Shown here: positions 2,787-48,886 of the stretch, piece after piece
Numbering within the stretch: the first letter of the stretch is position 1
How the letters are laid out: each line of letters opens with the position of its first letter
Origin: an uncultured virus (IMG/VR IMGVR_UViG_3300028629_000006)
Lineage: Duplodnaviria; Heunggongvirae; Uroviricota; Caudoviricetes
DNA: 64,000 nucleotides
Virus record (IMG/VR): IMGVR_UViG_3300028629_000006
Strand: one strand, 5' to 3'
Notes under the pieces: model-generated
Database searches by the model: none
Told to the model about the DNA's origin: nothing
What the model saw: the letters and a program-made list of their open reading frames with translations, nothing else
Position numbers and translations under genes: made by a program

Positions 2787-2798
2787 GCCTGCCGATCC

Positions 2799-15465: not shown

Positions 15466-15498
15466 CAGAGGGCAGTCTCTGGCAGGGGTGGGGACAGG
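15466..15498 (-). promoter_or_regulatory. Candidate late promoter (type 1 motif CCTGTCCCC-N15-TGCCCTCTG)
   Basis: Both 9-mers and the 15-bp spacing are identical to the copies at 32679-32711 and 36982-37014; ends 17 bp before the gpW-like start. Confidence 0.75.
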
Positions 15499-16340: not shown

Positions 16341-16378
16341 TGGGCTTCTTCAGTGCCTGCAGAGAGTGATTAGCCATC

Positions 16379-17382: not shown

Positions 17383-17454
17383 ACACCGCAGCTGCCCCTG
17401 CACCCGCTCCGGGTGCGGGGAAGATGGTGCCGGGGAGTCTTGAGGAGGGAGCCC

Positions 17455-17946: not shown

Positions 17947-17989
17947 GCGATCTCTATGCCCATATCCAGTGATTGTGGAGCAGCAGTGA

Positions 17990-20727: not shown

Positions 20728-20932
20728 GTTTCGCCAGCTCCTTCACCATCCACGCGGCGTAGTGCACAAGGTTGACGGTCCCGTCGGCATTGGTGGGCGC
20801 GCCGGCCGCGATATGCGCCCGTAGCGCCTCCTCCGAAACGTTCCGCACCCCGGCCTTCCGAAGGACCGCCAGGAGGTCCGGAACGGCCAAATGGGCGGCC
20901 GTAAGCGGCGCATTATGGCCGGATGCAGGCAT
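20717..20932 (-). CDS. Small wHTH protein, terminase small subunit-like
   Basis: Overlaps the terL start; AGAPTNADGTVNLVHYAAW resembles the Nu1 wHTH. Confidence 0.6.
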   Translation of the reverse strand: MPASGHNAPLTAAHLAVPDLLAVLRKAGVRNVSEEALRAHIAAGAPTNADGTVNLVHYAAWMVKELAKRGD

Positions 20933-21059
20933 GCGGATTCCCCTCGATTACTGGCGAATTCCCTTGCACTTCGGCCGAAAACATGGCTTCATGTGTGTAG
21001 AAGCCGATACCAAGAGCGCATTGAGCGCCGCGGACGGCGGAAGGAGAAGGAGGAGAACG

Positions 21060-21338
21060 ATGGACGCCAAGACCGCCAAGAGAAACGAACGCCGCGACCT
21101 GGAGCGCCTGGCCCAGGCCATCGCCCGGTGGGAGCGCCAGGGCCAGGAATGGGCCGCCGAAGGCGACGCCGAGATGGCCCGGGTCCACGCCAAGGACGCC
21201 GCCGACCTGCGCAAGGTCGCCGAGGCGGTCAAGAACGGCGACTACGAGATTGCCCGCGACCGGGTCCAGCGGCTCGACACCATCGTGCGCGACCAGGTGC
21301 CCTGCCGCCTCTACAACCGGCTCTTCGACCTCGGCTGA
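21060..21338 (+). CDS. Hypothetical protein (first gene of the inverted cassette)
   Basis: Strong AGGAG RBS; typical codon usage. Confidence 0.7.
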   Translation: MDAKTAKRNERRDLERLAQAIARWERQGQEWAAEGDAEMARVHAKDAADLRKVAEAVKNGDYEIARDRVQRLDTIVRDQVPCRLYNRLFDLG

Positions 21339-21359
21339 CGGAACGGAAAGGACGCGACC

Positions 21360-21737
21360 ATGAAGACCACCAAGAACGAACAGGCCCTGCCCCGCTTCAT
21401 TCACCTGAAGCGGGCCTGGTACGCCGACGCCAACCTTCCGGCCCTCAGGAAGGACGGCATCGTCGACCAGGTGACCTTCGGCATCTACTTCGTCGACGGC
21501 GGATGCACCGCCGAGATGTGCATGAGCTGGCATTGGCTCACCGGCAACGAGGACGGCGTCGCGCGGCTGGAGGCCTTCAGCGACAGCTTCGCGGCCCTCG
21601 GCCGGCCGGAGTTCAAGCGGCTGCTCGGCCGGCTGGCCCGGATGCCCAAGGACGCCGCGGACAGGATAGACCCGGCGGGGTTCGGCGCGCTCCTTGTGGA
21701 GTGCGGATTCGAAGACGCCACACCGGTCCGGAAATGA
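21360..21737 (+). CDS. Hypothetical protein
   Basis: Paralog at 63651-64000. Confidence 0.8.
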   Translation: MKTTKNEQALPRFIHLKRAWYADANLPALRKDGIVDQVTFGIYFVDGGCTAEMCMSWHWLTGNEDGVARLEAFSDSFAALGRPEFKRLLGRLARMPKDAADRIDPAGFGALLVECGFEDATPVRK

Positions 21738-21749
21738 AGGAGGCCGACC

Positions 21750-22280
21750 ATGAAGAAGCGCAACACCGAAGGCACGACCGCGACGGAGGCCGCCGGCAAG
21801 GCGGCCTCCGGACCCGGCCGCGTGACCATCCTGCTCCAGGGCCGGCGCGTCGAGGTCGCCAAGGCCGACGCCGACCGGATGGCCGAGACCGGCATCCGGT
21901 TCGCCTACCTCTGCAAGAAGGGCAACCTGACCATGACGGTGCCGGTGAACGACGACCGGAGCGAGCTCGCCGAGGTCGCCGACGAGCTGCTCCTGGCCGC
22001 CTACGGCGCGGCCAACCAGCTGGCCGAAGGCAACCGCTACCGCACCGGATGCGTGGCCGCCTGCGAGAAGGTCAAGACTGCCCTCGGCCGGCGCGACGCC
22101 GCCGAGCGCGCCAAGGGCGAACCGATGGCCGGCGTCGAGGCCCAGCCCATCCACGAGCGCGGCACCTGCAGCCTCCACGCCGAGCATGCCAACGTCAACC
22201 TCTGGCGCGTCAGCTGGGGCGACGGCGTCACGATGGATCTCTGCACCCGCTGCATGGCCTCGCTGGTCTTCGAGGAGTAG
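21750..22280 (+). CDS. Hypothetical protein with C-terminal Cys/His cluster
   Basis: Near-identical paralog at 63108-63638; AAGGAGG RBS. Confidence 0.8.
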   Translation: MKKRNTEGTTATEAAGKAASGPGRVTILLQGRRVEVAKADADRMAETGIRFAYLCKKGNLTMTVPVNDDRSELAEVADELLLAAYGAANQLAEGNRYRTGCVAACEKVKTALGRRDAAERAKGEPMAGVEAQPIHERGTCSLHAEHANVNLWRVSWGDGVTMDLCTRCMASLVFEE

Positions 22281-22283
22281 CCC

Positions 22284-22577
22284 ATGGAACTGCGCGAATT
22301 CACCCGCCACGATTTCGACGCCTTCGGCGGCGCCGAGCGCTGGCCGGATGCCGAACCCCTCATCGCCGACGGCGCCTTCGCCAACGGCATGGGCTGGGTC
22401 CTGGTCATGGACCGCCAGGGCGCCTGCCTCGTGTGCGACGATGAGCAGAGCGCGTTCGGCGGCTACGCCATCGCCCGGCCATTCCTGTCGCCGGCCGAGG
22501 CGCGCGCCTTTGCGGCCAGCCTCGGCGACCCCAAGACACGCGGCGAGTTCTTCCTGGCCGGCTTCACGCCGGTCTAG
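22284..22577 (+). CDS. Hypothetical protein
   Basis: Paralog at 62802-63101. Confidence 0.8.
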   Translation: MELREFTRHDFDAFGGAERWPDAEPLIADGAFANGMGWVLVMDRQGACLVCDDEQSAFGGYAIARPFLSPAEARAFAASLGDPKTRGEFFLAGFTPV

Positions 22578-22637
22578 GAAATCACACGGATTGAACCGCG
22601 GCCTGTCGCCGCGGACGGGAAAGGAAGGAGACGAGAC

Positions 22638-22961
22638 ATGTCGAGCAGCAAGAAGAACGCCAAGACCAAGGGCCACGCCAAGAAGGCCAAGGCAGAGAAG
22701 CCGGAAGCGGCGGCTCCGGCGAAGCCGGCCGGCGACGGCAAGCTCTCCGGGCTGGACGCGGCGGCCAAGGTGCTGGCCGAGGCCAAGGAGCCCATGAACG
22801 CCAAGGCCATCGTCGAGACGATGCTGGCCAAGGGGCTCTGGCAGACCGACGGCAAGACGCCCGCGGCCACCATCTACTCGGCCATGTTCCGGGAGATTCG
22901 CCAGAAGGGCGAGGCCGCCCGGTTCAAGATGGTCGAGCGGGGCAAGTTCGCCGCGAAGTAG
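22638..22961 (+). CDS. HARE-HTH (HB1/ASXL) winged-helix protein
   Basis: [16 protein letters not shown]...[16 protein letters not shown]...RF; Lys/Ala-rich N-terminus. Confidence 0.85.
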   Translation: MSSSKKNAKTKGHAKKAKAEKPEAAAPAKPAGDGKLSGLDAAAKVLAEAKEPMNAKAIVETMLAKGLWQTDGKTPAATIYSAMFREIRQKGEAARFKMVERGKFAAK

Positions 22962-22964
22962 CAC

Positions 22965-32369: not shown

Positions 32370-32632
32370 GGCCGCGCCCTCCGGATGCCCAGGATGAAGT
32401 CCTCGATGGCGGGGTGCGGCTTGAGGTTGGGCGTGGTGGGCGCGGCGCTCTCGCCGGAGTCCTGCGCCTCGATGCGGCGCAGGAATCGGCCACGGACCAC
32501 GTCCAGGTTCCGCATAAGCCGCCAGACGAGGTCGTCGTCCAACCGGTGGACGGCGACCAGTCCGCCGATCACCAGCGCCTCTTCCTCGAAGAGGGCGTCG
32601 ATCAACTCGCGGGCGTCGCTCTTGCTGATCAT
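32366..32632 (-). CDS. Hypothetical protein
   Basis: ATGA overlap with the sigma-like stop; first gene after the type 1 promoter motif. Confidence 0.65.
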   Translation of the reverse strand: MISKSDARELIDALFEEEALVIGGLVAVHRLDDDLVWRLMRNLDVVRGRFLRRIEAQDSGESAAPTTPNLKPHPAIEDFILGIRRARP

Positions 32633-33474
32633 CTCTCGCCCCCTTCGCAGTCCGCGTTGACGTTCGTCTCCAGACATACAGAGGGCAGTGAGTCCGGTGG
32701 GTGGGGACAGGTCTTCCGGCGTTTTTCGGAACTCTCGAAGCGGCGAATGGCCAGTTCCGCCCGCTGGCGGCGCTTCTTGGCCAGTTGGTAGTTCAGGCCG
32801 ATCTCCTCGGCGCACTCCCGGAGGAGCCGGCCGTAGACCAACGTCCCCACGAGGAGATGGAAATCGGCCTCGGTGATCCGGCCGGCTTTCAGCTGCTCGG
32901 AGAACCGGGCAGTGCGGTGCTCGTGCTCATCGCGAAGGTCCACCTCGGCGAAGCCGGGATGCACGGTCTCGCCCGCCAGGTATTCGATGACGGACGGATC
33001 GGCGAGCATCTCGATTTCGTTCCGCCGGCGCGCCCGCTGATACTCGCGGCTCAGTCGCCAGGTCGTTGTGTTGGTGATCCCCTGGAAGAGCCGGTCGGGG
33101 CGTCTGGCGATGTCCCATTCGCAAACGGCGCGCAGGAACGCCCAGACGGTGTTCCCCCACAGCACTTCGGCGTCCTGATCCAGGCTGGACCGCCTGATGC
33201 AGGCGGCCTTCAGCCGCGACCAGAAGAGGAAGAGAAGGATCGTTCGCCATCGCGCGTCCCGATCCGCGGCGTGAGCGGCCAGTATCGGCCGCAGCACATC
33301 ATCCTTCCGCGGGTCGTCCGACGCGCCCTTCCGCATGAACACCGCGACGGACTCCCAGGAGCGGAACCTCCTGAAGGCCCTTTCGCTCGTGCGGAGCCGC
33401 TGCAGAAGCGCCCCGTACTCTGCCTGCTTGACCTCTCGACCCAGTTCCTCACGCTCGACGTCTCTCGGGCCCAC
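32629..33474 (-). CDS. Divergent sigma-70/ECF-like factor
   Basis: Region-2-like DAEVLWGNTVWAFL and region-4-like HTH (ITEADFHLL..GRLLRECAEEIGLNYQLAKKRRQRA); same operon position as the clear sigma gene of prophage 2. Confidence 0.6.
   Translation of the reverse strand: MGPRDVEREELGREVKQAEYGALLQRLRTSERAFRRFRSWESVAVFMRKGASDDPRKDDVLRPILAAHAADRDARWRTILLFLFWSRLKAACIRRSSLDQDAEVLWGNTVWAFLRAVCEWDIARRPDRLFQGITNTTTWRLSREYQRARRRNEIEMLADPSVIEYLAGETVHPGFAEVDLRDEHEHRTARFSEQLKAGRITEADFHLLVGTLVYGRLLRECAEEIGLNYQLAKKRRQRAELAIRRFESSEKRRKTCPHPPDSLPSVCLETNVNADCEGGER
32679..32711 (-). promoter_or_regulatory. Candidate middle promoter (type 1 motif)
   Basis: CCTGTCCCC-N15-TGCCCTCTG in the 3' end of the sigma-like gene, pointing into the replication operon. 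Confidence 0.7.
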
Positions 33475-33541
33475 GACACCCTGCCTTTCAGGCCGGGCGT
33501 CGTGCGCCTCACTGGGGCCAAATCAGGGCGTCGAGCGCCTC
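33472..33541 (-). promoter_or_regulatory. Translation-inhibitory hairpin plus tandem repeat (Com-target-like)
   Basis: CACGACGCCC/GGGTGTCGTG stem buries the GTG start at 33474; GAGGCGCWCGACGCCC occurs twice (33495-33510, 33526-33541). Confidence 0.6.
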
Positions 33542-33554
33542 TGGTTCAGGGGGA

Positions 33555-33761
33555 CTAGTTCCTCAGCTTGCCATCCGAGCAGGCCGAGGCGTGTTGCTCG
33601 CGCAGTTCGTTCAGTCTGTGGCAGCCGCGGCAGATGCCGGCAGCTGGCAGGCTTACACGGTACTCGTGGCTCCGCGCAAACCGGATGTGCAACCGGTCGC
33701 CTTTCAGAATGCCCATCAGCTTTCCGCACTCCTCGCACCGCCATTCGCGCTCGCTATGCAT
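33555..33761 (-). CDS. Mu Com-like zinc-ribbon regulator
   Basis: EWRCEECGKLMG...ICRGCHRLN matches the Com pattern RC..C.KLL...CPRC...N. Confidence 0.7.
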   Translation of the reverse strand: MHSEREWRCEECGKLMGILKGDRLHIRFARSHEYRVSLPAAGICRGCHRLNELREQHASACSDGKLRN

Positions 33762-33886
33762 CTCCGACTCCTTTGCACACCGACCTGGTTTCATCCGCGG
33801 CGCAATGCCGCAGATCACGCCTGCATTTTTCGCGCGGGGAGAGCGGTGCGGAATGACGGGATGCTGACGAGCGCCTTACTGACAAC

Positions 33887-33910
33887 AAAGCCGCCCCGGA
33901 GGGCGGCTTT
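33887..33910 (-). terminator. Intrinsic terminator candidate after the helicase gene
   Basis: AAAGCCGCCC-4 nt-GGGCGGCTTT stem followed by a T-rich tract on the minus strand. Confidence 0.6.
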
Positions 33911-33937
33911 GTCAGGGTCTTGTCAGGGTGATGTCAG
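33910..33937. repeat. TGTCAG x3 direct repeats with 11-bp period (plus inverted CTGAC copies at 33864 and 33879)
   Basis: Copies at 33910, 33921 and 33932. Confidence 0.75.
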
Positions 33938-33963
33938 AGCTGCAAGACGCCCAATAGGGCGGC

Positions 33964-36720
33964 TTAGGCCTGTTCTCCCATATGGGCTTTGAGCTCGTCC
34001 ATTAACTTCTTGTGCTCGGGCAAGCGCCGAATGACCATGTCAGCGTCCACGGTTATGTTCCGGGGCGGCACCGAGAACCGGTACTGCTTGGCGCGGTTGT
34101 TCTCGACCAACTTGTCCGCGTCGACGTCTGCGGCCTTCAAATCCTGCTTCAACCGTCGGATCACTTGGTGGTATCCGTCCGGTTCGCCCAACTGCCCCGC
34201 CGACGCCCAGCCTACCTCGGTGGTCTTCGCTGCCACGGCGAGCTTCAGGGCCGCCGAGAACGACTGTTCGGTGAGCCACGCCTCCTTGCCATCGATCCTC
34301 ACCAGATGCCGGCGTTTGTCGGCACGCCCGTCGATGTGGATGTCCACATCCGATTGGTAAGCCACGCCCATATCATCGGAAGGGGGATACTCCTCAGCCC
34401 ACTCCGGCTCACAGCCAGGCTGTTCGGCTGCGTCCGCTGGGGCGGTTTGTGTCCCGCCATCCTCATCGCCCTTCGTCGCTTCCTCGCGCTGGAACAGGGA
34501 GGCCAGCTTGCGGAAGAGTCTCGCTGCGATGGGCCTGGTAACCAACTTCTCAATCTGTTGCCTTGGGGCCTCGGCAACCTTCTCCAGCGTGTCTAGACCG
34601 CTTGCCAGTAGTCCCATGATCCGACCGCGGCCGAGTCCTCTTACGCCGACATTGGCCATCTGCACCCCGGGGTGCACCACTCCGTGCCTCAACTGCTCCG
34701 AAAGCGCCCCCATTCGACTCACCGCCGTCTCGGGCCAACCGACGATTCTGGCGACCGCGCTAAAGGCTTCCACCAACCAACTGAACTCGCCGGCAAGCCC
34801 CACGATGCTGCCTGAGAAGCAGTGAAAGCGCCCCTCTATCTCCCGCGTGGGCAATCCCTGTATCCAGTCATACAGGAGAAGCGTCTTCTTCGCCCGCTTG
34901 GAGCCCTCATAGGAGAGAGTGCTGAGGCGGTTGATTTCCGCAAGCCGGCCGCGCGGACCGTCAGGCAGCGCTGCGACCGCCGTTTTGAGCATCTTCAGAT
35001 ACTCTCCCGTCCGATGTTCCTGTGTGGCGAGGTAGAAGTAGACGTCAGCTCCATCCTCCGTCCCCGATAGGCACGACAGAACCTCCAGGGGATGAACATC
35101 GTCCGCGCACTCCCGGACCTCCTTGGCAAATTGGGCCAGTTGAATGGCCGTATCGACAGAGAGTCCTTTGACCGCTGCCAGCCGCCCGAGCTCCGAGGCA
35201 ATCAGGCGCCCATCCTCCGAGCCGATCAGGCCGCCTTCAATGCAATGCTTCATCCCCTTCGATAGTTTCTCGCCGAACTGCACCTCGTTGCTGCCTCCGC
35301 GCCAATACAACTCGCCCGTGAACGAACCCAAGAGCGTCTCTTTGATTTCCTCTTCCGTCTGGCACATCTGAGAAGCTACCAGGTTCAGGACGTGGTACGA
35401 CAAGGGATCATTGCCCAGCGCCGGCTTGATTGTGCCGAGGCTTCCCTTGACGTAGTTGGTGCGGTAAGTGCCGGCCTGGAATTCCGAATCGGCCACGATC
35501 ATGGCGCGACCGAATTCGCCTTCCAACCCCAGCCTGCCCGCTCGGCCACTGATGTTTTCGTACTCGGCCTGCGATATGGGCACCGGGCTCCACCGGCCCG
35601 AGCGGTCATGGTCCCACTTCTCCGGGTCGAGGAAGACGTTCTTGGCAGGCATGTTGATGCCCATTGCAAGCGTCGTCGTCGAGCAGAGCACCGCGATGTC
35701 CCCGCGCCGGAACCACCGTTCGATGACGTCGCGTTGGTCCCAATCCAAATCAGAATTGTGGTAGGCGACGCCGCGTTCGAGCAGGCGAGCAAGCCGGTCC
35801 TTCCCGAGAGAGTCTTCCAAATACTGCAGCTCATCCAGTGCCTTCTCGGCGCGTTTTCCCCGCAGACCCTTGGCTATGGCGGTAGCCGTATCGACACTTT
35901 CCTGACGGCTCTTGCAGAAGACGATGGATTGTTCGCCGGCTCCGACGAAGGCCCGTACCTGGCTAACGAGGATGCCTATTCGGTCGCCTTCGTCCGGAGG
36001 GGGCGCCAACTCCTCAACTCCATCCTTTCCGCTGTTGTGTTCCGAGTAATGGAACGCACCATTCCAGAGCACGCCCTTTCTCAGTTCCACCGGGCGGAGA
36101 TTGGTGTGGCACAACTCGGCGTCCATCCACTTGGCAAGCCTCTCGCTGTTGCCAAGCACCGCCGATAGCCCGATGATCTGCGGCCTGCCTTCCGACAGCT
36201 TGATCTTGGTGAGCAAGAGTTCCAGGTCGGCCCCGCGCGCCTTGTCTCCGATCATCTGCAGTTCGTCAATAACCACTAGGCCAACGTTGCGGAGGAGGCC
36301 GGGGCTGGTTACCAAGAGCCCCTGCATCTTTTCGAAGACGATCACCGCGATGTGAAACTGGCCTCGATTGATGTCCCGGTCAAACTCTCGCCTGTCACGC
36401 GTAGAGATAACCACCCGAACGCCCAGGGGGCCGTAGCGCGACCGGAACTCATTGAACTTCTCCTCGGCCAGTGCCTTCTGCGGCACGAGGTAGACTGCAC
36501 GCTTGTTCTGTCGGGCAGTTCGGATCGCCGCCATCTCGCCGACGAAGGTCTTGCCAGAAGAAGTGGGCGAGAATACGAGGACGTTGCGCCCGTCCATTAC
36601 TCGGCACTTCTGCAAAGCATGCTCTTGAACTGGCAGCAGTTCCTCGTGGCCGTCGGCCTGCCACAGGTCGATAACCTTGCCGTCGATGCCGAAGGCTTCC
36701 AGCGCTGCGATCCTCATCAC
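33964..36720 (-). CDS. Ski2/Hel308-like SF2 helicase with C-terminal OmpR/PhoB-like wHTH
   Basis: SPTSSGKT, VIDELQ, GLSAV, RPVEL, STTTLAMGIN, SGRAGR, HhH (RGLGRGRI), acidic linker, then VRIDGKEAWLT...IRRLKQDL...VEN..KQYRF. Confidence 0.85.
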   Translation of the reverse strand: MMRIAALEAFGIDGKVIDLWQADGHEELLPVQEHALQKCRVMDGRNVLVFSPTSSGKTFVGEMAAIRTARQNKRAVYLVPQKALAEEKFNEFRSRYGPLGVRVVISTRDRREFDRDINRGQFHIAVIVFEKMQGLLVTSPGLLRNVGLVVIDELQMIGDKARGADLELLLTKIKLSEGRPQIIGLSAVLGNSERLAKWMDAELCHTNLRPVELRKGVLWNGAFHYSEHNSGKDGVEELAPPPDEGDRIGILVSQVRAFVGAGEQSIVFCKSRQESVDTATAIAKGLRGKRAEKALDELQYLEDSLGKDRLARLLERGVAYHNSDLDWDQRDVIERWFRRGDIAVLCSTTTLAMGINMPAKNVFLDPEKWDHDRSGRWSPVPISQAEYENISGRAGRLGLEGEFGRAMIVADSEFQAGTYRTNYVKGSLGTIKPALGNDPLSYHVLNLVASQMCQTEEEIKETLLGSFTGELYWRGGSNEVQFGEKLSKGMKHCIEGGLIGSEDGRLIASELGRLAAVKGLSVDTAIQLAQFAKEVRECADDVHPLEVLSCLSGTEDGADVYFYLATQEHRTGEYLKMLKTAVAALPDGPRGRLAEINRLSTLSYEGSKRAKKTLLLYDWIQGLPTREIEGRFHCFSGSIVGLAGEFSWLVEAFSAVARIVGWPETAVSRMGALSEQLRHGVVHPGVQMANVGVRGLGRGRIMGLLASGLDTLEKVAEAPRQQIEKLVTRPIAARLFRKLASLFQREEATKGDEDGGTQTAPADAAEQPGCEPEWAEEYPPSDDMGVAYQSDVDIHIDGRADKRRHLVRIDGKEAWLTEQSFSAALKLAVAAKTTEVGWASAGQLGEPDGYHQVIRRLKQDLKAADVDADKLVENNRAKQYRFSVPPRNITVDADMVIRRLPEHKKLMDELKAHMGEQA

Positions 36721-36981: not shown

Positions 36982-37014
36982 CCTGTCCCCGCTACCCTCA
37001 TTCGGTGCCCTCTG
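36982..37014 (+). promoter_or_regulatory. Candidate promoter (type 1 motif) for LSR2
   Basis: CCTGTCCCC-N15-TGCCCTCTG, 83 bp upstream of the LSR2 start. Confidence 0.7.
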
Positions 37015-38637: not shown

Positions 38638-38794
38638 CACATCCTGGCCGTGTTATGGCAGGAGATTTTGTCCAAAGGGTGCTTGTGCGCTTCATTGTTG
38701 GGCTCTACTTGTTAACACCGGCTTGATCGAGATAATCTCCTGCATCCTGAGCAATGAAGATCACGTTCGGCAGGTAATCCTGCAGGAGGGGGCG

Positions 38795-39889
38795 GTGACC
38801 AGAAACCCCTTGGCCAACACGGCCTACGAGGAACGACGCAAGCCACGTTCCGGCGATCCGCGAGGGCCATACTTCCGCGATCAAACCGCCATCATCCACT
38901 CGTATGCATTCCGGCGCCTTAAGCACAAGGCTCAGGTCATATTTGCCACCAGAAACGACCACGTCTGCACCAGAGTCGAGCATGTTCTGCATGTGGCAAC
39001 GATAGCTGCAACCATATGCAAGGGGCTGAACGAAACAGGTCGATGGGATCTGAACCCGGACATTGCATATGCCATCGGCCTAGGTCATGACCTCGGCCAC
39101 GCGCCCTTCGGACACGCTGGAGAGGAGGTGATCGCTAAGTACTGTCCTGGGTTCATTCATGAAGAGCACGGCTATCGTGTAGTTGAACGTCTCGGCCAGA
39201 AGGGTGGAGGATCTCTTAACTTAACCTATGCAGTAAGGGACGGCATTAGATGTCACAACGGAGAACGCTATGAGCGCAGCCTCAAGCCATCCGCCACGCT
39301 CAACAATCTGGATACGCTTCAGGGACGGTCCGCAGTCCCAGCGACATATGAGGGTTGCATCGTGCGCTTCTCGGACAAGATCGCCTATCTGGGCAGGGAC
39401 GTCGAAGATGCGATTACCCTGAAGCTTATCAGCGCCAGTGACGTCCCGATTCCTGTTGCAGCGGTCTTAGGCAACTCCAACTCCCAAATCATAGATGTCC
39501 TGGTGCGTGATGTTGTTGAAGCTTCGCAAGACACGGATGCAGTACAATTGTCTGAGGAGAAGTTTGCGGCCGTGAAGAACTTGTATGACTTCAACATCAA
39601 GAACATCTACAACCACGAGAGGCTGGCGAGGAGCAAGGAATACGTGAAGTATGTTGTTGGCTCACTCTTTGACTACTTTCTCAGTCTCTTTAGAACCCAT
39701 GGCTTCAACTTTGAGGACTACGCTAGCCGATCTCTTGCGATCAACAATGCATTTGGTCATTCGCTGGAGACCCTTGCCGCCTTCTACAAAGAGGAGGGTG
39801 CTACTGGCGAACGAATTGTCGCGGACTATGTTGCCGGCATGACAGATTCATACGCGCTGGATCAGGCCAAGCAGATCATGCTGGTCTGA
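38795..39889 (+). CDS. dgt: dGTP triphosphohydrolase (HD family)
   Basis: RD...IIHS.AFRRLKHKAQV, TRVEH, GHDLGHAPFGHAGE, DKIAY..D.ED and DYVAGMTD. Confidence 0.9.
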   Translation: MTRNPLANTAYEERRKPRSGDPRGPYFRDQTAIIHSYAFRRLKHKAQVIFATRNDHVCTRVEHVLHVATIAATICKGLNETGRWDLNPDIAYAIGLGHDLGHAPFGHAGEEVIAKYCPGFIHEEHGYRVVERLGQKGGGSLNLTYAVRDGIRCHNGERYERSLKPSATLNNLDTLQGRSAVPATYEGCIVRFSDKIAYLGRDVEDAITLKLISASDVPIPVAAVLGNSNSQIIDVLVRDVVEASQDTDAVQLSEEKFAAVKNLYDFNIKNIYNHERLARSKEYVKYVVGSLFDYFLSLFRTHGFNFEDYASRSLAINNAFGHSLETLAAFYKEEGATGERIVADYVAGMTDSYALDQAKQIMLV

Positions 39890-40307
39890 ACGATTTGCGC
39901 GGTGATCGCGCGATGGCTCTAAGAACTCGGCTGATCGCCCCTTCAGGATCACGTTCGACGGTGTGTCCCCAAATACGGATTACTGTCCAACCGCCCCGCC
40001 GCAGTCGTCTGAAGGTGCGCTGGTCGCGTCTCCTGTTCGCCTCGATCTTGGTTCTCCAAGAGGGCGAAAGACAACCCCTCCATCGAGGAAACCGCCAACC
40101 ATGCCAGAAATCACCATCAACAAAGATGGCCACCCTATGAGCTGGGAACACCACATCCGGTTTCCCTGGAAGGCTGGTGACATGCTTCCTGAACCGCAAT
40201 CCTTTCTTGCGAAGCGCGGACGTCACCACGCACTCAATAGCTGTGTCCTTCCCTCTGATACGGGACATGCAGTGGCTGCGCTGAGCTTTCGTTAAATTGT
40301 CTGCCAT
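39876..40307 (-). CDS. vsr: Very short patch repair endonuclease
   Basis: MSRIRGKDT, LPGKPD, FVDGDFWHG and GWTVIRIW. Confidence 0.93.
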   Translation of the reverse strand: MADNLTKAQRSHCMSRIRGKDTAIECVVTSALRKKGLRFRKHVTSLPGKPDVVFPAHRVAIFVDGDFWHGWRFPRWRGCLSPSWRTKIEANRRRDQRTFRRLRRGGWTVIRIWGHTVERDPEGAISRVLRAIARSPRKSFRPA

Positions 40308-40316
40308 CGTCCCCGG

Positions 40317-43235
40317 TTACGGTTCAAACTGGCCGAACGCTGCCACCATCTCTGTCCCGCCAGGGATTGAGATTGGCGGCGGTGTTCCTGCACCCGCCCG
40401 AAACTCCTGAGGTTCCCTCCGGCATAGCATGCGGAAATCGCAGCCGGAACACTTGTCGCGATGAGGACGCATGGGGTAATCTGACTGCAGAATGCCCTCA
40501 ACGGCAAACTCGATGTTTCGAAGCGCACTGTCAATGGCCTCGTCCGTCACAGGCACCTCGACGCGACGATTGTCCTTTAGCAGGTGGACATGCCCGGTCT
40601 TGGTATTCTCGCCGAGGACATGTTGCGCCGCACGCGCATAGAGTTGGACTTGGAGCGACAGCTCCGTCCATTCAAGGTTTACATTCTCGGCAGGCTCATC
40701 TCCACCTTCCACCGCTTTGAAATCGATGATCTCCGCCTCCAATATCTTCCCCGCGGGGTCCTGTTTCAATAGGAGATCAATGGAACCGGATATCACACAG
40801 CTGCTGAAGGGCACCTCAAAGGTTGCCTCAACCTGCCGTTGTCTTAGGAAGTCCGCTCCGAACGACGCAGCATACTCTCGCATGATCTCGATGGCCTTAT
40901 TGCGAGCCCTCTCATAGGGGCCCGGCGAGTTCTCCGGGTCTCTGCTTTGGGGCACATGTTTGAGGTGGAAGACAGAGGCTCCGACTTCGCCAGCCTCTGT
41001 CGGGGTCGGTGATGCATTCTGATATTCTTCATGAAGCTTCTCTACTGCTGTATGCACGGTCTTTCCGAAGCCGAACATATCAGGGATGAAAGGGCTGAAC
41101 CCGAAACTCTGCCGAAAGCGATAGTCGCGCGGACAACGCAAGTAGTACCGCAATGCCGAGAAGCTCGTAGGCAAGTCGGACTCTTCGGCTCTACGCTTCG
41201 GGACATGAGGGACAAGACCGGGCGTCGGCACAGCCGCATCATCTAACATCTCTGCATGCCGAAGCCTATTTGCGAATCGAGAGCGGTTTCTGGGTCTTGC
41301 CGCCGCGGGCAGGTGTTCTGCACCGGTCACGTATAGATAGCGCTCTGCGCGGGTGAGCGCCGTATAGAACAGCCGCGTCTCCTCTTCGGGCGTACTCTGA
41401 TAGGCACCACGAGTGATGGCGTTCTGGATTACTGCCAAGGGTAGCCATCCATCGTAATGCCGGCGACGCGCCGGGAAGCGCTGTTCCTCGACATCGCAGA
41501 TGAAAACGCAGGGAAACTCCAGTCCCTTCATCTTGTGGACGGTGGAAACGGTTACTGCATCGGGACGCTGAATCACTTCTTCCATCGAGACGTCGTATCC
41601 TGTCTCTGCTGCATTGCCGAGGAAATTCAAAATCTCATGGAAGCGACTCGATGAATCAACGCTCATGTAGACCGCTTCAACGTCTTGAATCATTCGGCTG
41701 AATAATCCGATGTCCCGCATGGTGGAATCATCAAAATCGTGTCGGGCTGTTCCGAAGGCCTCTAGCAAATCATAGACGAGCTGCTGTGGATATACACGCC
41801 GCCGAGCACCACCCGATGGCGTGTGAATGAGCCGCCCCCACTCGGTAAGCACTCTAATTAGTGCACCGAAGTCAGCATGCGGGTAGGCTGGCCGTATTGC
41901 AGCATCGAAATGGGCTTGGACTCTTTCCCGGGGTGGCGAGGAATTGCGAAGAAGCTCGAACGTGCTTCGGAGAACCGCGACTTGTGGCCTCTCGAACGGG
42001 CCACCACCTGCTTCGAGAGTGAAAGGGATGTCTCGTTCGGTCAGTGCCCTAGTGAAGGCCGAGTGCCTGGCACAACCGTCCTGCTCGGGTTGCCGCGTAG
42101 ACCTCATGAGGATTGCGAAGTCAGCTGGTGTAAGCCCGCGCATGGTGCCGTCGCTATCTTGATAAGCGGTGCCCAGTAGTGCTCGAATCTTATCTGCGAC
42201 CCACGAGACTTCTGTCGGTCGGTCGCTGAACCAGAGGGCTCGGAAGTCCCGAGGGGCCTTGTTCTCCCTAGCTGCGGGATTCTTCGCCATGCGGCTCGGG
42301 CCGAGTTCGGCTGCAGCAAATGCATCGGAAGCCTCGACAATCGGCGTTGTGCTTCGAAAGTTCGTGGCCAGGGTATGACTCGCAGAATCTGGATACCGCC
42401 TTCCGAACTCAAGAATGTTGCTTACATCCGCTCCCCGCCAGGCGTAGATTGACTGATCATCATCTCCCACCACGAAGAGCGTATCTGAGCGGCGATGCAA
42501 CTGACGGATGAGTTCCTCCTGGCAAGGGTTGACATCCTGGTACTCATCCACCATGAGATGCCGGAGTGGTTGGATTGCCTCATTGGCCGCAGCGTCATTC
42601 TGAACAAGTGAGTCTACAACCTTGCGGATCATCAATGAGAAATCGAGGAATTGATCCCTGTTAAGGCCGTCGTTAAGACCTCGCAAGACGGCGCCGAGGT
42701 CGCGGTCGGCCGCCTCGACGTCTACGAGCCGCACCAACTCATCATTCATCGTCTTCCACGCCTCAGAGATCTCCCTGACGGTGCGGAAGTACTTGTGCTG
42801 TGACGAGACTCTACCTTGGATGACCCTAAGCCCGAGCTGCCAATAGCGCGAAATCAGATAGAGGACGAGTCGGTTTTCATCCAGGACATCATACTGCCGA
42901 TATATAGCGTTCATCTTCATGAGAACCTGATGGCAATAGGAATGGATCGTGCCGATATACATCCGCCCCATGACCGCAGGATCGATGCCGACTCGCGCTA
43001 GGGCCGAGCTGACTCTCCGCTTGATTGCTTCTGCCGCCTTGTCTGTGAAGGTGAATGCCACAATCGAATCGGGAGGATGTCCTTCACCCAGAAGCCTGGC
43101 GATTCGATATGCCAGCGTTCGTGATTTGCCCGAACCAGCGCACGCTATCGTCAGCACTTCACGTGCAGGATCGAGCGCGGCATCTCGTTGCCTCGGGGTC
43201 AGCTCTGCGTCAAGTATCTCCCGTATGTTTGTCAT
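40317..43235 (-). CDS. UvrD-like SF1 helicase fused to a PD-(D/E)XK nuclease with Fe-S cysteines
   Basis: ACAGSGKS, VDEYQD, VGDDDQSIY, TVHKMKGLEF, YTALTRA; C-terminal CP..., GSID, IDFK, QVQLY and CSGCDFRMLC. Confidence 0.9.
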   Translation of the reverse strand: MTNIREILDAELTPRQRDAALDPAREVLTIACAGSGKSRTLAYRIARLLGEGHPPDSIVAFTFTDKAAEAIKRRVSSALARVGIDPAVMGRMYIGTIHSYCHQVLMKMNAIYRQYDVLDENRLVLYLISRYWQLGLRVIQGRVSSQHKYFRTVREISEAWKTMNDELVRLVDVEAADRDLGAVLRGLNDGLNRDQFLDFSLMIRKVVDSLVQNDAAANEAIQPLRHLMVDEYQDVNPCQEELIRQLHRRSDTLFVVGDDDQSIYAWRGADVSNILEFGRRYPDSASHTLATNFRSTTPIVEASDAFAAAELGPSRMAKNPAARENKAPRDFRALWFSDRPTEVSWVADKIRALLGTAYQDSDGTMRGLTPADFAILMRSTRQPEQDGCARHSAFTRALTERDIPFTLEAGGGPFERPQVAVLRSTFELLRNSSPPRERVQAHFDAAIRPAYPHADFGALIRVLTEWGRLIHTPSGGARRRVYPQQLVYDLLEAFGTARHDFDDSTMRDIGLFSRMIQDVEAVYMSVDSSSRFHEILNFLGNAAETGYDVSMEEVIQRPDAVTVSTVHKMKGLEFPCVFICDVEEQRFPARRRHYDGWLPLAVIQNAITRGAYQSTPEEETRLFYTALTRAERYLYVTGAEHLPAAARPRNRSRFANRLRHAEMLDDAAVPTPGLVPHVPKRRAEESDLPTSFSALRYYLRCPRDYRFRQSFGFSPFIPDMFGFGKTVHTAVEKLHEEYQNASPTPTEAGEVGASVFHLKHVPQSRDPENSPGPYERARNKAIEIMREYAASFGADFLRQRQVEATFEVPFSSCVISGSIDLLLKQDPAGKILEAEIIDFKAVEGGDEPAENVNLEWTELSLQVQLYARAAQHVLGENTKTGHVHLLKDNRRVEVPVTDEAIDSALRNIEFAVEGILQSDYPMRPHRDKCSGCDFRMLCRREPQEFRAGAGTPPPISIPGGTEMVAAFGQFEP

Positions 43236-43257
43236 GCAGCCCTCCTGTGAATATTCA

Positions 43258-44316
43258 CTACCGTGTTCCCTTCTCATTAGCGTGTGCTCGCAGCCTCTTG
43301 ATGATGCAGAATGCGTGTTTGCGAGCGAGGATCGGGGGGAAGGCGTTGCCGATCATCTGCGCTGCCGCGAACTTCCCCCGTTCTAGTGAGAACCAATAAC
43401 GGAGGGGGAAGGTCTGGAGAAGCGCCGCTTCTCGCAGTGTCATGGCGCGGTTCTGCGTAGGGTGAAGGAAGCGTCCTTTTGACGGATTTACGCAGCCACC
43501 AGTGATTGTTGGGGCGACCTTCCCCCAAGCCATCCTCCCGTACACATCGTTGAATCCATCACATTCCTCGTGACATCTCAATTGCTGCTTCACGCCCAAG
43601 GCAGTTCGGCTGCCGCCATTCTTTGGGATCGCGGCAATAAGTGCCTTCACTCTATCACACCGATCCTCCGGTAGTTTATGGAGGGCATCGCGAGACTTGG
43701 CTGGGCGGGGTAATCTCCCGATTGTATCTTTGACAGTGAGGCTTTTACTCTTGGCCGCCGGAGCGGCATATTGAATAGGACCGACACGGCTGGCAATAAA
43801 GACCATTCGTCGCCGGCGCTGGGGCACACCAAAGTGGGCAGCGTCTAGAACTATGGGTTTCCCGACATAGCCGAGATGTCGAAGCGCCTTCCGAACCTGA
43901 TTGAAACGGTAATCCTTGATCAGGCGCGGTACATTCTCGATCAAGACAACTTTGGGCAGGAGCTTTCTGACGAAGCGAAGATACTGAAACACCAAGTCCT
44001 TGCTCTTCTTGTCTCGCACGCGCCGGCGGCCGTTTAGACGAGGCAACGCGGAGAACGCTTGGCATGGGGGACAACCCGCAAGAAGATCGAGCCCACCCCG
44101 ACCCAGCTTGTGATATGCCATGACCTCCTTTACTGCTAACCGGCGGATGTCCCTAGCCCACACTTGCACGTCGCGGAGATTCTTGCGATAAGTTGCCACG
44201 GCGAGCGGGTCGTTCTCAACAGCAGCAATGACGCGGAAGCCGGCATTCTTGATGCCCAGGCTGGTCCCGCCGCAACCCGAGAACAGGTCTATTGCTCTAG
44301 GCTTTCGCTTCGCCAT
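43258..44316 (-). CDS. C5 DNA cytosine methyltransferase
   Basis: DLFSGCGG, GCPPCQ, ENV, PQRRRR, REAALLQTFP and IGNA. Confidence 0.95.
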   Translation of the reverse strand: MAKRKPRAIDLFSGCGGTSLGIKNAGFRVIAAVENDPLAVATYRKNLRDVQVWARDIRRLAVKEVMAYHKLGRGGLDLLAGCPPCQAFSALPRLNGRRRVRDKKSKDLVFQYLRFVRKLLPKVVLIENVPRLIKDYRFNQVRKALRHLGYVGKPIVLDAAHFGVPQRRRRMVFIASRVGPIQYAAPAAKSKSLTVKDTIGRLPRPAKSRDALHKLPEDRCDRVKALIAAIPKNGGSRTALGVKQQLRCHEECDGFNDVYGRMAWGKVAPTITGGCVNPSKGRFLHPTQNRAMTLREAALLQTFPLRYWFSLERGKFAAAQMIGNAFPPILARKHAFCIIKRLRAHANEKGTR

Positions 44317-44325
44317 GCTGCCTTT

Positions 44326-46218
44326 TCACGCCTCCTTAGTCACCAGCACCTCTTCGCCGAGCATGTCGATGATCTTGACGGCGACGGTGCTCTTGCCTCC
44401 GCCGTCCGGCGCGGGGATGTCGTATTCGCCGGAAACGAGATCGTTCTTCCGGGACGGTATATCAGACAGGGCGACGTTGAAGACCTTTCCGTCGTATGCC
44501 GGGTCGATCATCACGCAGTCCACCATGCAACGCCAATCCTTGATCTTTTTCTGGAAGAGGTCGCGTTCCATGTCCAGTCGCTTGATGATCGTGGGCGACA
44601 CGAAGTCCTCGATCCGGACGGTGATCCGGCCCTTGGACCTTGTGATCTTCACGCGGGCCGACGCCGGGTCATGCTTGATGAATCCTGCGTATTTCGGGTC
44701 CGTGCGGAGTTCAATCACACGCAGACGGTTCGGGACATTGTGCCCCTTCTTGCGCACCCGGTTCCACTCCTCCACCCACGAATGCGCAGTCAGTTCCATC
44801 CCCAGGCAGACGAGCACGACTTCCCGATCCTCGTCCTTCCGCGCTTCGAGCTCACGCTTCAAGTCCTCCAGATCCATCGGCGAGAGCGGGTGGTTGAAGG
44901 GTATGATCTTGACCAGTGACTTGCCCAGCACACCCTCGAAATAGGCGTCCGAACGGGACGTCTCTACGCCGATGTACTCGCAAGCGAGCTTTATCGCTTC
45001 GTTGTGCTGGACCTGGAGGTCGTAGTCGTTTACACGGAACACGCAGAAGGACGACTGCGTGGGTTCGGGCGGCTTCTCCTCCGTGTCGTCCATCAGACTC
45101 CCTTGTTTCGCGCCGCCGCATTCGGCGATCTGCTCGCTGATGGCATTCTGAAGCCGCTTCGCTGTCGTGTGGATCGCCCCCTTGTTGATATCGCAGCCGA
45201 TCCAGCGCCGACCGAGTCTCTGGGCCACGGCTGCTGTCGTACCAGACCCCACACAATAGTCTGTAATGATGTCGCCCGGGTTTGTATACACTAGGAGCAG
45301 CAATTCCAGAAGCGCTTCGGGTTTCTGCGTTGGATAATCCGTCTTCTGATTCTTGTCGGCGGGAGGGATCAGAGGAATACCCCAGATGTTGTCCAGCGTC
45401 TTAGCGTCAGACTCCTGGTAAACGAGATTCCCGTCCTCATCCTTGAGGTTCACCAGGATGCCGTCGACCTTTACGCGCTTTAGCTGCTTGATGACGCTCT
45501 CCCTTGGTGCTGCGAGGCGGTGAAAGGTGGCTTCATCTCCCTTAGCGTAGACCAGAAGTGTGTTGGTGGCCCGAGGAAGAATCCCCTTTCGAACGTCATG
45601 CATCTTATTGTAGAAGTACCAGTAGATTTCATTACGGAAGCTATTAGCCCCAAACACTTCATCCAGGACAACTCGAAGATGGTGCTCTTTTCGCCAGTCG
45701 CAGTGGAGCACGAAGATCCCTGACTCTGCAAGCAGCTCTTTGCTCAACAGGAGACGCTCGTACATAAACTGGAGATAGTTGTCATTAGCCCAAATGTCCG
45801 TGTACTGGATCTGCTCTCCGAGCGTATACTCTTCGCCTTCGATCCTGGCTTGCCCCTTCACCCCGCGCAGTTCCACCTTGCGAACATAGTCAGCACCAGA
45901 ATCGAATGGCGGGTCGATGTAGATGAGATTTACCCGGCCCCGAAATCCGTTGGCCAGCAAGTGCGCCAGCACTTCTTTGTTGTCGCCATGGAACAGCAGG
46001 CCGGTTTTCGGATAGGCCCCCGGCCAGTCCAGCCAGGTGGTCCTGGGCTTGATCTTAGCCAGGTCGCCCGACGGGTCGTAGGTCTCCACGTGCTGCGCCG
46101 GTAGAGCCGGGACGTAGCGCAGCGGCTTCTTGCCGACCCAGGAAAGCATCGGGCGGCCCTTGGCGGCCGACACTTCCACCTGAGCCGGGGCGTCTTCCTT
46201 CTTCGGTTTCTTACTCAT
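44326..46218 (-). CDS. mod: Type III R-M methyltransferase subunit
   Basis: IYIDPPF, YPTQKPE and D...GSGTT; adjacent to res. Confidence 0.88.
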   Translation of the reverse strand: MSKKPKKEDAPAQVEVSAAKGRPMLSWVGKKPLRYVPALPAQHVETYDPSGDLAKIKPRTTWLDWPGAYPKTGLLFHGDNKEVLAHLLANGFRGRVNLIYIDPPFDSGADYVRKVELRGVKGQARIEGEEYTLGEQIQYTDIWANDNYLQFMYERLLLSKELLAESGIFVLHCDWRKEHHLRVVLDEVFGANSFRNEIYWYFYNKMHDVRKGILPRATNTLLVYAKGDEATFHRLAAPRESVIKQLKRVKVDGILVNLKDEDGNLVYQESDAKTLDNIWGIPLIPPADKNQKTDYPTQKPEALLELLLLVYTNPGDIITDYCVGSGTTAAVAQRLGRRWIGCDINKGAIHTTAKRLQNAISEQIAECGGAKQGSLMDDTEEKPPEPTQSSFCVFRVNDYDLQVQHNEAIKLACEYIGVETSRSDAYFEGVLGKSLVKIIPFNHPLSPMDLEDLKRELEARKDEDREVVLVCLGMELTAHSWVEEWNRVRKKGHNVPNRLRVIELRTDPKYAGFIKHDPASARVKITRSKGRITVRIEDFVSPTIIKRLDMERDLFQKKIKDWRCMVDCVMIDPAYDGKVFNVALSDIPSRKNDLVSGEYDIPAPDGGGKSTVAVKIIDMLGEEVLVTKEA

Positions 46219-46225
46219 GGCATCT

Positions 46226-48886
46226 TCACTCCGTGTTCGTCGGCGGGAACGCGCCCGTCTTCACGAACTCCCTGGTCGTCTTCATCTGGTTCTGCGCGAC
46301 CTCATGGCCGACGAAAATCATCTCATACCTGAGACGATCCGGGTTGAGCCCCTCCCACCTACGGATCGCCATCGCCTTTCGTCCTTCGGTCCCCTGCACC
46401 GGGTCGTCCTTCATCCGCTGGTCTTTGATCTCGATGATGAGGCACTTCCCATTCTTGAGTCGGATCACGAAATCGGGCGTGTACCGCCGCCAGTCACCGT
46501 GCTCGTCGCGGTATTCCACGTAGAAGTCGGTCTTGTCCGGAGTCGTCAGAGCGCCGGTGAAGTAGACGTCCTCCACCTGCTCCGGGTCCGCGTTGGCCAG
46601 CAGCACCAGTTTCTCGCAGAACGACTTCTCCGGATTCGAATCGAAGTTATACGGCGTATAGTGGAACCCGAAGTCGGCCGTGTTGACCAACTGCAGGTCC
46701 TCCATGCGCATAAGCAGGGACTCGCGTTCTTTCAGATAGACGATCTCGGCGGTGTAGACCTCCGCGCCAGCATCGTCGATTTCCCTGGTGAAGCCTTCCG
46801 GTTTCACCAGGGCGAGCGCCACGTCCACCTTCTCCTCTTTCACCTCGTACCGGCACATCTGCGCCTCGATCTGCGCTCCGAGCGGTTCGACATGCCCCAA
46901 GGGTACCTCGCCGTCTTCGACGTAGAGGCGGTTCATCTCGTCGTAGACGCGCCAGAACTCCACGCGGTAGGCGTCTGAAAGACGTACGGCGGCGGTGTAG
47001 ACATCGAGCGACTCGAACGCCCCCTCGAGCCGCACCTCGTCTACTTCCTGGAGCACACGTTCGGCGGCCTGTCGTTCGACCAGCGTCAATATGGTGCGGG
47101 TCATCGCCTCGCCCGGCTTCACGTCGGGTTTGGAAAGGGTGACTGTGCTTTCGCCAGCGTCATCCTTCAGGACGACGCGCCGCATGATCTGAGTCACCAC
47201 CAGCGGCGGGATGTTCACCTTCCGCAGGCGCAGCACGGCGGTCCGCGTCTCCCTACCGGCGTGGTCCAGATCGCTGAGCGATTCGCCGTAGGTCTCCTGG
47301 AGCTGCTTGTCGAGGATCGACCGGTTATCCTGGGAGAGGTAGACCCGCGCGGGGCGATTGTTGCCCGGCACCTGGCGCAGGCAACGCGACGCGGCCTGGA
47401 GTACGAAGTTGTTGGAGCTGCGCAGCTTGCGGGCAAGCGCACAGGCGAAAAGGCTGGGGCAGTTCCAGCCTTCGGTGCCCTTGTTCACCAGCAGTATTAC
47501 GCGATGTGGGCTGTCGGGGAAATTGAGTCGGTTAAAGGCGTCGACCTCCTCCTGTTTCGACTCCGACGTGTTGCGGAGGATGATGCCGGGGTCCTGGCCG
47601 AGTTCGAGCAGCGTTCGCTCTACATGCGGACGCAGCTCGTCCAGATCGTCATTCTGCGGGAAGTAGATCGCCAACTTCGCCTTCTGTCCGCCGTGAAGCT
47701 CGACGTCGGCGTACTCCGAGAAGAAGTCGCGCACGATCTCCCGGACGAACTCGTCGGCATTCTCGTTGTCGAAATCGTATGCGTAGATGTTGCTGGTCAG
47801 CTCCTTCAGAATGCCATCCTGGATTCCTTGCGACAGGCCGTACCAGATGACTACGTCGCGCAGAGGTTGACGCTGGAAGTAAGGGGTCCCGGTCGTGTTG
47901 ACGACGCAGACGAGGTTCGGGCTCTTGTGATGCAGATAGTCGACCGTCTGTCGGACGCGCTTCAGGTCCTGGCCCATCTCGCTGCCGTAGGTATGGTGCG
48001 CCTCGTCGGAGAACACGGCCAGATGCGGCAGACTGGCGATGGCCTGCAACCGACGGTTCGCCACCGCCTCCTTCGCCGCCTCCAGCCCGGACTCGGGAAG
48101 CAGAGACCCGATGTCACTCTTGCGGATCGCCGACTTCTGAATCCGAATCTTCTCGGTGTTGGTAACAACCAAATTGAAGAGCGACCCGCGGATGACCGGA
48201 ACGTCCGGGTCGCCGTCGCGGGTGAAGGTAAGCTTCAGGTTAGCGAGAAACAGCTTGCAGAGCCGGGGCGGAAGGATCTTCTCGTAGGGCACCTCGGCGA
48301 GTTCGCGGAGAGATTCGATAATCGTTGTGCCGGGCGCGAAGACGAGCGCGTTCTGGACGAACGGCGTGGGCCGTTGCTGGAAGAGCCCCTCGGCATACTC
48401 CATCGCCATAGCAAATTCCGTGGCGATGATCGCGCCGATCAGGATCGTCTTGCCCGCCCCCATGGCCAATGCAAAGATATAACTTGGGTAGTCGAGCGTC
48501 AGAGTCTCGCGCAACGCGTCCAGCTTGATGTCCTTCACGAATCGGTCGTCTTCGCGTATCCTGCCCCACAGCGCGTCGATGCCCTGGTCCATGACGTACT
48601 GCTTGATATCTCCGTGGGTGAGACCGAGGGCCTCCAACCGTTGAGAGTTGCTGGAATACAGCCGGTTGTAGAGCTCGAAGATGTGTGGCGTCCTTTCGAT
48701 GAGCCTCAAGTACCAGTACGTTTCCAGCGCCTGAAGCTGCGCATGGCGCAGGAAGCGGCGCGTTCCCGTTACCTCATCAAGTTGAAAACGAAGCACCTCG
48801 GCAATGGTGGGGTAATCGGTGCACTCGTATCCGGTCCGCCGCCATTCAGCCGTCTTCTGTGCTATCAGTTGATGAAGATGCCCCAT
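46226..48886 (-). CDS. res: Type III R-M restriction subunit
   Basis: AMGAGKT, SDEAHH, EGWN and C-terminal YTPDF...IEIK. Confidence 0.88.
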   Translation of the reverse strand: MGHLHQLIAQKTAEWRRTGYECTDYPTIAEVLRFQLDEVTGTRRFLRHAQLQALETYWYLRLIERTPHIFELYNRLYSSNSQRLEALGLTHGDIKQYVMDQGIDALWGRIREDDRFVKDIKLDALRETLTLDYPSYIFALAMGAGKTILIGAIIATEFAMAMEYAEGLFQQRPTPFVQNALVFAPGTTIIESLRELAEVPYEKILPPRLCKLFLANLKLTFTRDGDPDVPVIRGSLFNLVVTNTEKIRIQKSAIRKSDIGSLLPESGLEAAKEAVANRRLQAIASLPHLAVFSDEAHHTYGSEMGQDLKRVRQTVDYLHHKSPNLVCVVNTTGTPYFQRQPLRDVVIWYGLSQGIQDGILKELTSNIYAYDFDNENADEFVREIVRDFFSEYADVELHGGQKAKLAIYFPQNDDLDELRPHVERTLLELGQDPGIILRNTSESKQEEVDAFNRLNFPDSPHRVILLVNKGTEGWNCPSLFACALARKLRSSNNFVLQAASRCLRQVPGNNRPARVYLSQDNRSILDKQLQETYGESLSDLDHAGRETRTAVLRLRKVNIPPLVVTQIMRRVVLKDDAGESTVTLSKPDVKPGEAMTRTILTLVERQAAERVLQEVDEVRLEGAFESLDVYTAAVRLSDAYRVEFWRVYDEMNRLYVEDGEVPLGHVEPLGAQIEAQMCRYEVKEEKVDVALALVKPEGFTREIDDAGAEVYTAEIVYLKERESLLMRMEDLQLVNTADFGFHYTPYNFDSNPEKSFCEKLVLLANADPEQVEDVYFTGALTTPDKTDFYVEYRDEHGDWRRYTPDFVIRLKNGKCLIIEIKDQRMKDDPVQGTEGRKAMAIRRWEGLNPDRLRYEMIFVGHEVAQNQMKTTREFVKTGAFPPTNTE

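Follow-up and report, generated by a model that had tools for sequence, protein, structure and literature searches.

To our knowledge, Com is a rare phage translational activator that has been characterised on one target. The loop word that it binds, as determined by SELEX, is CC-N2-3-GAG, with GA crucial, according to the accessible text of PMC6483171. Genes resembling com also precede L-type bacteriocins, tailocin cargo and levansucrase genes in Pseudomonas, and their role is left open in the accessible part of that report (PMC6240691).

The DNA considered here, referred to as the window, is a stretch of 64,000 nt from an uncultured virus of the Caudoviricetes (IMG/VR record IMGVR_UViG_3300028629_000006), in which an earlier note, made from the letters alone, had proposed a Mu com–mom-like translational switch redeployed to control a sigma factor. 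Comparative analysis identified a leader of about 70 nt with two conserved and mutually exclusive folds, ON and OFF. We favour, with a probability of roughly 0.7, a protein-gated translational ON switch of the Mu com–mom type acting on a prophage sigma-like master regulator, in which we infer the binding and activation steps. A literature search found no description of this leader; such a motif may be held in the supplement of PMC5737381 or in papers beyond the search, and the main text of PMC5737381, so far as it was accessible, contains no whole-word match for Com, sigma, zinc or prophage.

Prophage setting

The switch lies at the start of a long leftward prophage operon. The two genes that flank the leader are as follows.

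33555..33761, minus strand: Com-like zinc-ribbon gene, 68 aa, CxxC-x31-CxxC, all-beta model
32629..33474, minus strand: sigma-70-fold protein, 281 aa, sigma1.2-2-like over residues 5–152 and sigma4-like over residues 185–253

The sigma-like gene is the first of a replication and recombination block. The operon encodes a PD-(D/E)XK-like DUF3799 protein, AAA_24 and DUF669 proteins, a resolvase, a helicase and a primase-like AAA protein, and then a methyltransferase, terminase, portal, protease-capsid and tape measure protein; a serine recombinase gene is found at 37098.

Immediately upstream of the switch operon (33964–36720, minus strand) is a gene for a 918-aa DEAD-box helicase with a match to archaeal helicase domain 4, and a similar-looking helicase frame lies upstream of the sigma-like gene in one other locus (L255). 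A second small zinc-ribbon ORF (CPRC..CRYC; about 18287–18463, minus strand) comes right after the terminase gene, and a plus-strand block of short ORFs between terminase and portal (15500–18260) runs against the direction of the phage operon. Between methyltransferase and terminase, a 683-aa ORF (20913–22964, minus strand) has no match in Pfam, NCBIfam or PHROGs. Beyond the recombinase, the region 38723–48886 carries genes for an HD-domain protein, a helicase-nuclease and two DNA methyltransferases, which are probably defence or restriction-modification cargo.

The gene downstream of the leader

The predicted model of the 281-aa protein has a pLDDT of 88. When it was used to search with Foldseek, every row listed was a sigma factor or a transcription complex holding one, at E-values of 0.0015 and weaker, so that all sigma-fold E-values exceed 0.001. 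By VIA, residues 5–152 superimpose on pro-sigmaK with Z 9.4 (rmsd 2.6 over 102 residues) and residues 185–253 reach Z 7.8, a Z of 9 being modest for a helical protein. The window protein has no match to a sigma model in Pfam, NCBIfam or PHROGs, and the sigma profile drew no match in a PDB sequence search; among the 115 members of the family, 22 match Pfam Sigma70_r4_2, and one homolog carries the NCBI name sigma-70 family factor. The earlier claim that the downstream gene encodes a sigma factor is thus upheld at the level of a sigma-70 fold.

Frames downstream of the leader match the sigma-like profile in 221 of 225 cases, and two more are accounted for by one contig with an ECF sigma factor. 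In locus L001 the zinc-ribbon gene and leader precede an ECF sigma factor that scores above the TIGR02937 cut-off (2501–3390). The downstream frame of locus L057 looks like a hybrid of an ECF-type sigma factor and the usual sigma-like family.

The gene upstream of the leader

The earlier note had described the upstream gene as that of a Com-like CxxC..CxxC protein. Two CxxC pairs are indeed present in the 68-aa product (C9-x2-C12 ... C44-x2-C47), and the protein is a distant, longer-spaced relative and not a clear member of the Com family. C9, C44 and C47 are invariant, and C12 is found in at least 90% of sequences, in an alignment of 140 sequences that comprises the window protein and 139 of the best 150 of 257 HMMER matches against representatives, one sequence (P0016) having been left out as a repeat artefact.

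A word-based homolog search retrieved only the protein itself, and the window protein does not match the Pfam Com model. Within the family, Pfam Zn_ribbon_Com (PF10122) is nevertheless the most-matched entry, with 31 of 140 members at E≤0.05 and a best E-value of 1.3e-5. An HHalign comparison with Mu Com gave a probability of 33% at E 5e-4, the aligned part being confined to 33 N-terminal columns; a PHROG translational regulator was matched at E <0.03 by two of four relatives tested, and gpCom weakly by one. Structure searches with the model were uninformative, the best VIA Z being 2.8 and no viral Foldseek match falling below E 0.001. The gene was located 248 times in GTDB genomes and 213 times in viral contigs; an annotated phage collection yielded no relatives, and a plasmid collection yielded one, in an unannotated Shinella record. 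On present evidence, the zinc-ribbon protein probably works like Com.

Repeats, stem and start codon in the window

Four elements of the leader are referred to below.

33526..33541, minus strand: repeat 1, a hairpin with a G-C pair, a bulged A, a 4-bp stem and a 5-nt C-NN-GA loop
33495..33510, minus strand: repeat 2, the same hairpin, whose loop and 3' arm double as the 5' arm of the start-codon stem
33516..33519, minus strand: linker GGCC, whose partner in the ON fold is the GGCC at 33494–33491, immediately 3' of repeat 2
33472..33504, minus strand: OFF stem, a translation-inhibition-like hairpin that spans the SD-like AAGG region and the GUG start at 33474

The two copies of the repeat (33541–33526 and 33510–33495) are identical at 15 of 16 positions and are spaced 31 nt apart. 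A search of the whole window allowing up to one mismatch found these two and a single further copy, on the plus strand at 1447, against a chance expectation of 0.31. In the OFF stem the 5' arm, 33504–33495, pairs with the 3' arm, 33481–33472, which contains the GUG, and the AAGG at −13 to −10 of the GUG falls within the loop and 3' strand. The stem folds with −33.3 kcal/mol and z −7.2 in a chosen segment of 43 nt cut around it. The minus strand of 33560–33440, the 121-nt segment whose folding had been proposed as a check, gave z −3.4. Folding also points to the 3' half of repeat 1 as a possible spare lock on the start region.

The GUG at 33474 is the first position of the alignment of 115 sigma homologs, and an ATG, GTG or TTG directly follows the 3' arm in 50 of 74 non-redundant leaders; of the others, one has ATA there, 22 start 1–2 nt later by the parse used and one has none. 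Several claims of the earlier note thus stand as made: a stem that includes the GUG and a purine-rich ribosome-binding region, a 16-nt repeat present twice with its second copy overlapping the 5' arm, and GUG as the true start codon. Two features go beyond that note: each repeat can fold into a hairpin of its own, which cannot coexist with the stem, and a linker helix is present. A descriptor of the repeat hairpin gave six matches in the window, including the two known ones (shuffled mean 2.4, maximum 7), and no further convincing operator hairpin was found there.

Conservation of gene and leader

A search with the two-repeat pattern returned 50 viral loci, nearly all of which had, unasked, a CxxC..CxxC ORF upstream and a stem ending at the start codon downstream. 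To avoid circularity, loci were then gathered by protein search only; the 50 pattern-found loci were not used as such for covariation, and some of their contigs came back through the protein searches. The zinc-ribbon-driven loci came from a set of 301 genomes (13 matches), from GTDB (the best 80 of 248) and from viral contigs (the best 80 of 213), and the sigma-driven sets contributed 80 of 170 plus 32. Of 286 loci examined, 52 had no zinc-ribbon match, six were cut and 228 were complete.

The stem is present after the zinc-ribbon gene in 225 of the 228 complete loci. Among the three misses, the motif is visible by eye in L055, L262 shares its contig with L033, for which the stem had been detected, and L064 is an unrelated protein that matched weakly. 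The 225 stem-bearing leaders represent 122 distinct sequences, which were thinned to the 74 used below.

When loci were approached from the sigma-like gene, at least one repeat hairpin was found in 46 of 47 loci with the zinc-ribbon gene, 40 of which have two, and in none of 28 loci without it; this comparison left out 17 loci with short upstream DNA, 13 that were redundant and seven partial matches. No other CxxC..CxxC frame was found within 700 nt upstream in any of the 28. On a quick tree (L150 left out; L234, mis-extracted, on a long branch) the label for presence of the zinc-ribbon gene changes eight times, at least six of these being forced. The independent events are few, and the 28 loci are not independent, because most of them share one alternative leader.

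That alternative leader (L147–L156, L163, L233, L238, L243, L244 and similar loci) is conserved and ends in a 7-bp hairpin, paired throughout, in which the ATG is enclosed; no SD is obvious, and from its sequence it reads as a second lock on the same gene. The leader of L221 has repeat 2 only and is a natural single-site variant.

Two competing folds

Across the 74 leaders, the ON helices (both repeats and the linker helix) are paired in 97.6% of 888 cells. Seventeen cells at five pairs have changed on both sides, a number matched by 0 of 500 shuffles and with slid controls far lower, and such two-sided counts are inflated by relatedness, 10 of the 17 cells coming from one alphaproteobacterial clade and reflecting few events. 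In the linker GGCC helix 97% of cells are paired and the changes are one-sided only. RNAalifold returned the ON fold and added a pair below the bulged A (59 G-C, 10 A-U), a result that does not rank the two folds because the OFF 3' arm is out of register for one clade in the alignment.

The OFF stem, which uses the 3' arm of repeat 2, is paired in 69–73 of 74 leaders at each of six positions, with some mismatches tolerated (69 of 74 at the weakest pair). It is contained in the MFE structure of 60 of 68 leaders, and at least one base of the start codon is paired in 69 of 74 MFE folds. Both folds survive in L058, L234 and L259, where the shared arm has changed and each of its two partners has changed to match, as a two-state switch predicts. 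The last variable loop base of repeat 2 and the first base of the start codon are Watson–Crick partners in 27 of 50 leaders, compared with 19.6 after shuffling (0.8% of shuffles).

The median cost of opening positions −15 to +5, calculated for 66 leaders, is 21.3 kcal/mol for the free RNA, barely moves when repeat 1 is held (21.1), and drops to 16.0 for repeat 2 and to 9.8 for both, figures that are suggestive only, since the same model failed to reproduce opening in an equilibrium folding control on Mu mom (11.2 before and after). With repeat 2 alone held, repeat 1 re-locks on the 3' arm in 55 of the 66 leaders; because repeat 1 takes over the lock in this way, two proteins would have to bind, and a threshold would result. 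The modelling suggests that the start is freed only when both hairpins are held, and the duplication would then make sense as a two-key lock. The median price of forcing the two hairpins is 14.6 kcal/mol (18.6 in the window), a large amount for a pair of small proteins to pay at equilibrium, and the MFE structure of a transcript ending before the 3' arm is the ON fold; together these make capture during transcription plausible.

Proposed switch and alternative explanations

Comparative sequence evidence indicates that the leader is a real, deeply conserved RNA switch with two folds. The OFF fold sequesters the SD region and the start codon by pairing them with the loop and 3' arm of repeat 2. 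The ON fold has both repeats as bulged-A hairpins with a C-NN-GA loop and a helix under repeat 2 closed by the linker GGCC, and the start region is free. In our working model, the first cistron of the mRNA supplies the zinc-ribbon protein, which would bind the ON hairpins, perhaps while they are forming on the growing transcript. Most likely it binds the repeats as folded hairpins, displacing the stem; two binding sites appear to be needed, and binding of two proteins would set a threshold.

Among the alternatives, the one that survives best, and which we consider unlikely, is translational coupling or a cis effect: ribosomes that reach the end of the zinc-ribbon gene would shift the leader to ON, or its folding kinetics would do so, and the protein would have another role. 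The stop codon of the zinc-ribbon gene lies 8–42 nt from repeat 1 in 70 leaders, the fold of the shortened transcript would suit this explanation, and it would equally yield the co-occurrence of gene and leader. However, that distance varies five-fold, the hairpin matches the known Com target, and the near-invariance of unpaired bases in both copies (bulged A kept in 72 and 69 of 74 leaders, loop GA in 73–74 of 74) points to a reader.

Slightly less probable again is that the zinc-ribbon protein does bind the RNA, with a repressing or stabilising effect, or that the leader controls transcription attenuation and not translation initiation. In favour of this, the GA in the loop of repeat 2 belongs to the OFF stem as well. 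The conserved unpaired features are nevertheless those of the ON fold and the stem sits exactly at the start codon; moreover, there is no U-tract 3' of the stem, and a consensus scan of 32400–34200 found neither an intrinsic terminator nor a sigma70 promoter.

We regard as highly improbable the explanation that the repeats are DNA operators for a transcription factor, be it the zinc-ribbon or the sigma-like protein, and that the stem is incidental. Each repeat is a short palindrome, and the two are direct repeats at a modal spacing of 30–31 bp (55 of 72), about three helical turns; yet the spacing ranges from 29 to 35, close sigma homologs that lack the zinc-ribbon gene also lack the repeats, and the three-way compensation involves the distant 3' arm. 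Furthermore, the ON helices contain 27 G-U against 7 A-C cells, an excess expected of RNA on the coding strand and not of a DNA palindrome. This asymmetry and the compensatory changes agree with the earlier proposal of a structure formed in the mRNA.

It is just as improbable that the zinc-ribbon gene is merely a cassette passenger and that another ligand (a host protein, small molecule, antisense RNA or temperature) switches the leader. Adjacent gene and leader could indeed move as one block, and close sigma pairs differ in the whole upstream cassette, but the hairpin resembles the Com target, its neighbour resembles Com, and in Rfam 15 no family reaches its gathering score here or matches over the leader up to E 5.

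Com-type activation of the sigma-like gene is the reading that we consider probable.

Candidate promoters and the proposed role of the switch

A bipartite motif is present in identical form at three sites in the window.

32679..32711, minus strand: CCTGTCCCC-N15-TGCCCTCTG, located where the sigma gene ends; candidate promoter, putatively used by the sigma-like protein
15466..15498, minus strand: candidate promoter copy 2, upstream of a small head gene and the portal gene
36982..37014, plus strand: candidate promoter copy 3, upstream of the serine recombinase gene (37098)

The motif occurs exactly three times with the same 15-nt spacer, by a pattern derived after these sites had been seen, and a corrected-spacer search found no further copies. 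A bipartite motif containing TGTCCC follows the sigma gene in 60 of 65 homologs. A family-wide promoter matrix did not beat shuffles, and the locus-specific motif alone stands out; its downstream half departs from the family consensus, which suggests element-specific promoter recognition. On sequence grounds, the three motifs are candidate promoters of the sigma-like protein.

A further region probably comprises a promoter/operator, possibly that of the switch operon itself, and a terminator.

33853..33937, minus strand: region upstream of the zinc-ribbon gene, with three CTGACA at an 11-bp period and inverted GTCA copies

These elements surround a 12-bp GC hairpin (33912–33885), and similar arrays occur in L054, L055, L056 and L058.

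Once made, the sigma-like protein would transcribe from three element-specific promoters (replication, head and recombinase), leading to lytic commitment. It is tempting to speculate further, and we do so tentatively, that a large family of prophages, most of them uncultured, commits itself through a cooperative two-site Com-type switch, in which a pair of zinc-ribbon proteins has to capture the tandem hairpins before a sigma factor is released for the replication, head and excision promoters. If this is true, the lysis decision would be thresholded at translation by an RNA-binding activator, beyond a DNA-binding repressor alone, and Mu com–mom would be a special case of a general use of Com-type ribbons in regulating phage development. 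A 70-nt RNA and a 68-aa protein now allow the role of com-like genes to be put to a direct test, and the system offers natural, probably orthogonal protein–hairpin pairs and a compact two-input translational gate.

Comparison with known systems

The protein in the window resembles members of the sigma-70 family in having, in its predicted model, sigma2 and sigma4 domain folds in order, and differs from them in lacking a curated-model match; its promoter recognition is presumed. The regulator Aca2 is likewise a small phage protein that works through conserved leader hairpins, but it is an HTH repressor that blocks ribosome binding, whereas the switch described here is predicted to activate (PMC13551039, accessible text). 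The Pseudomonas com-like genes also lie ahead of a gene other than mom. They encode PF10122 proteins and precede terminal cargo, with no RNA switch described in the accessible part of PMC6240691; by comparison with that text, the present system has a transcription regulator as its target and a leader with covariation support.

Mu com–mom shares with this locus a gene for a small CCCC zinc protein immediately upstream on the same strand, a short hairpin with a G-C pair, a bulged A, a 4-bp stem and a C...GA loop, and the overlap of this operator hairpin with a larger hairpin that buries the start codon, which is GUG both in Mu and in the window. The hairpin descriptor, with a loop of 5 or 6 nt, has as its sole plus-strand match in 1,718 nt of Mu the published Com site (PMC6483171), the 6-nt loop having been admitted with the Mu site known and 4 of 74 repeat-2 loops here being of 6 nt. 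The exact word CC-N2-GAG is found in three of 70 parsed copies of repeat 1 (L061, L146 and L237), the closing pair being mostly G-C.

The two systems differ in that the target here is a sigma-70-fold regulator and in Mu is Mom, and in that two tandem operator hairpins and a linker helix are found here in place of the one hairpin of Mu. The loop is mostly of 5 nt and closed by G-C, compared with 6 nt and C-G in Mu; the leader is intergenic, whereas that of Mu lies inside com; and 31 residues separate the cysteine pairs, as opposed to 16 in Mu Com. Finally, the host element here is a serine-recombinase prophage, and Mu-like elements are transposable phages.
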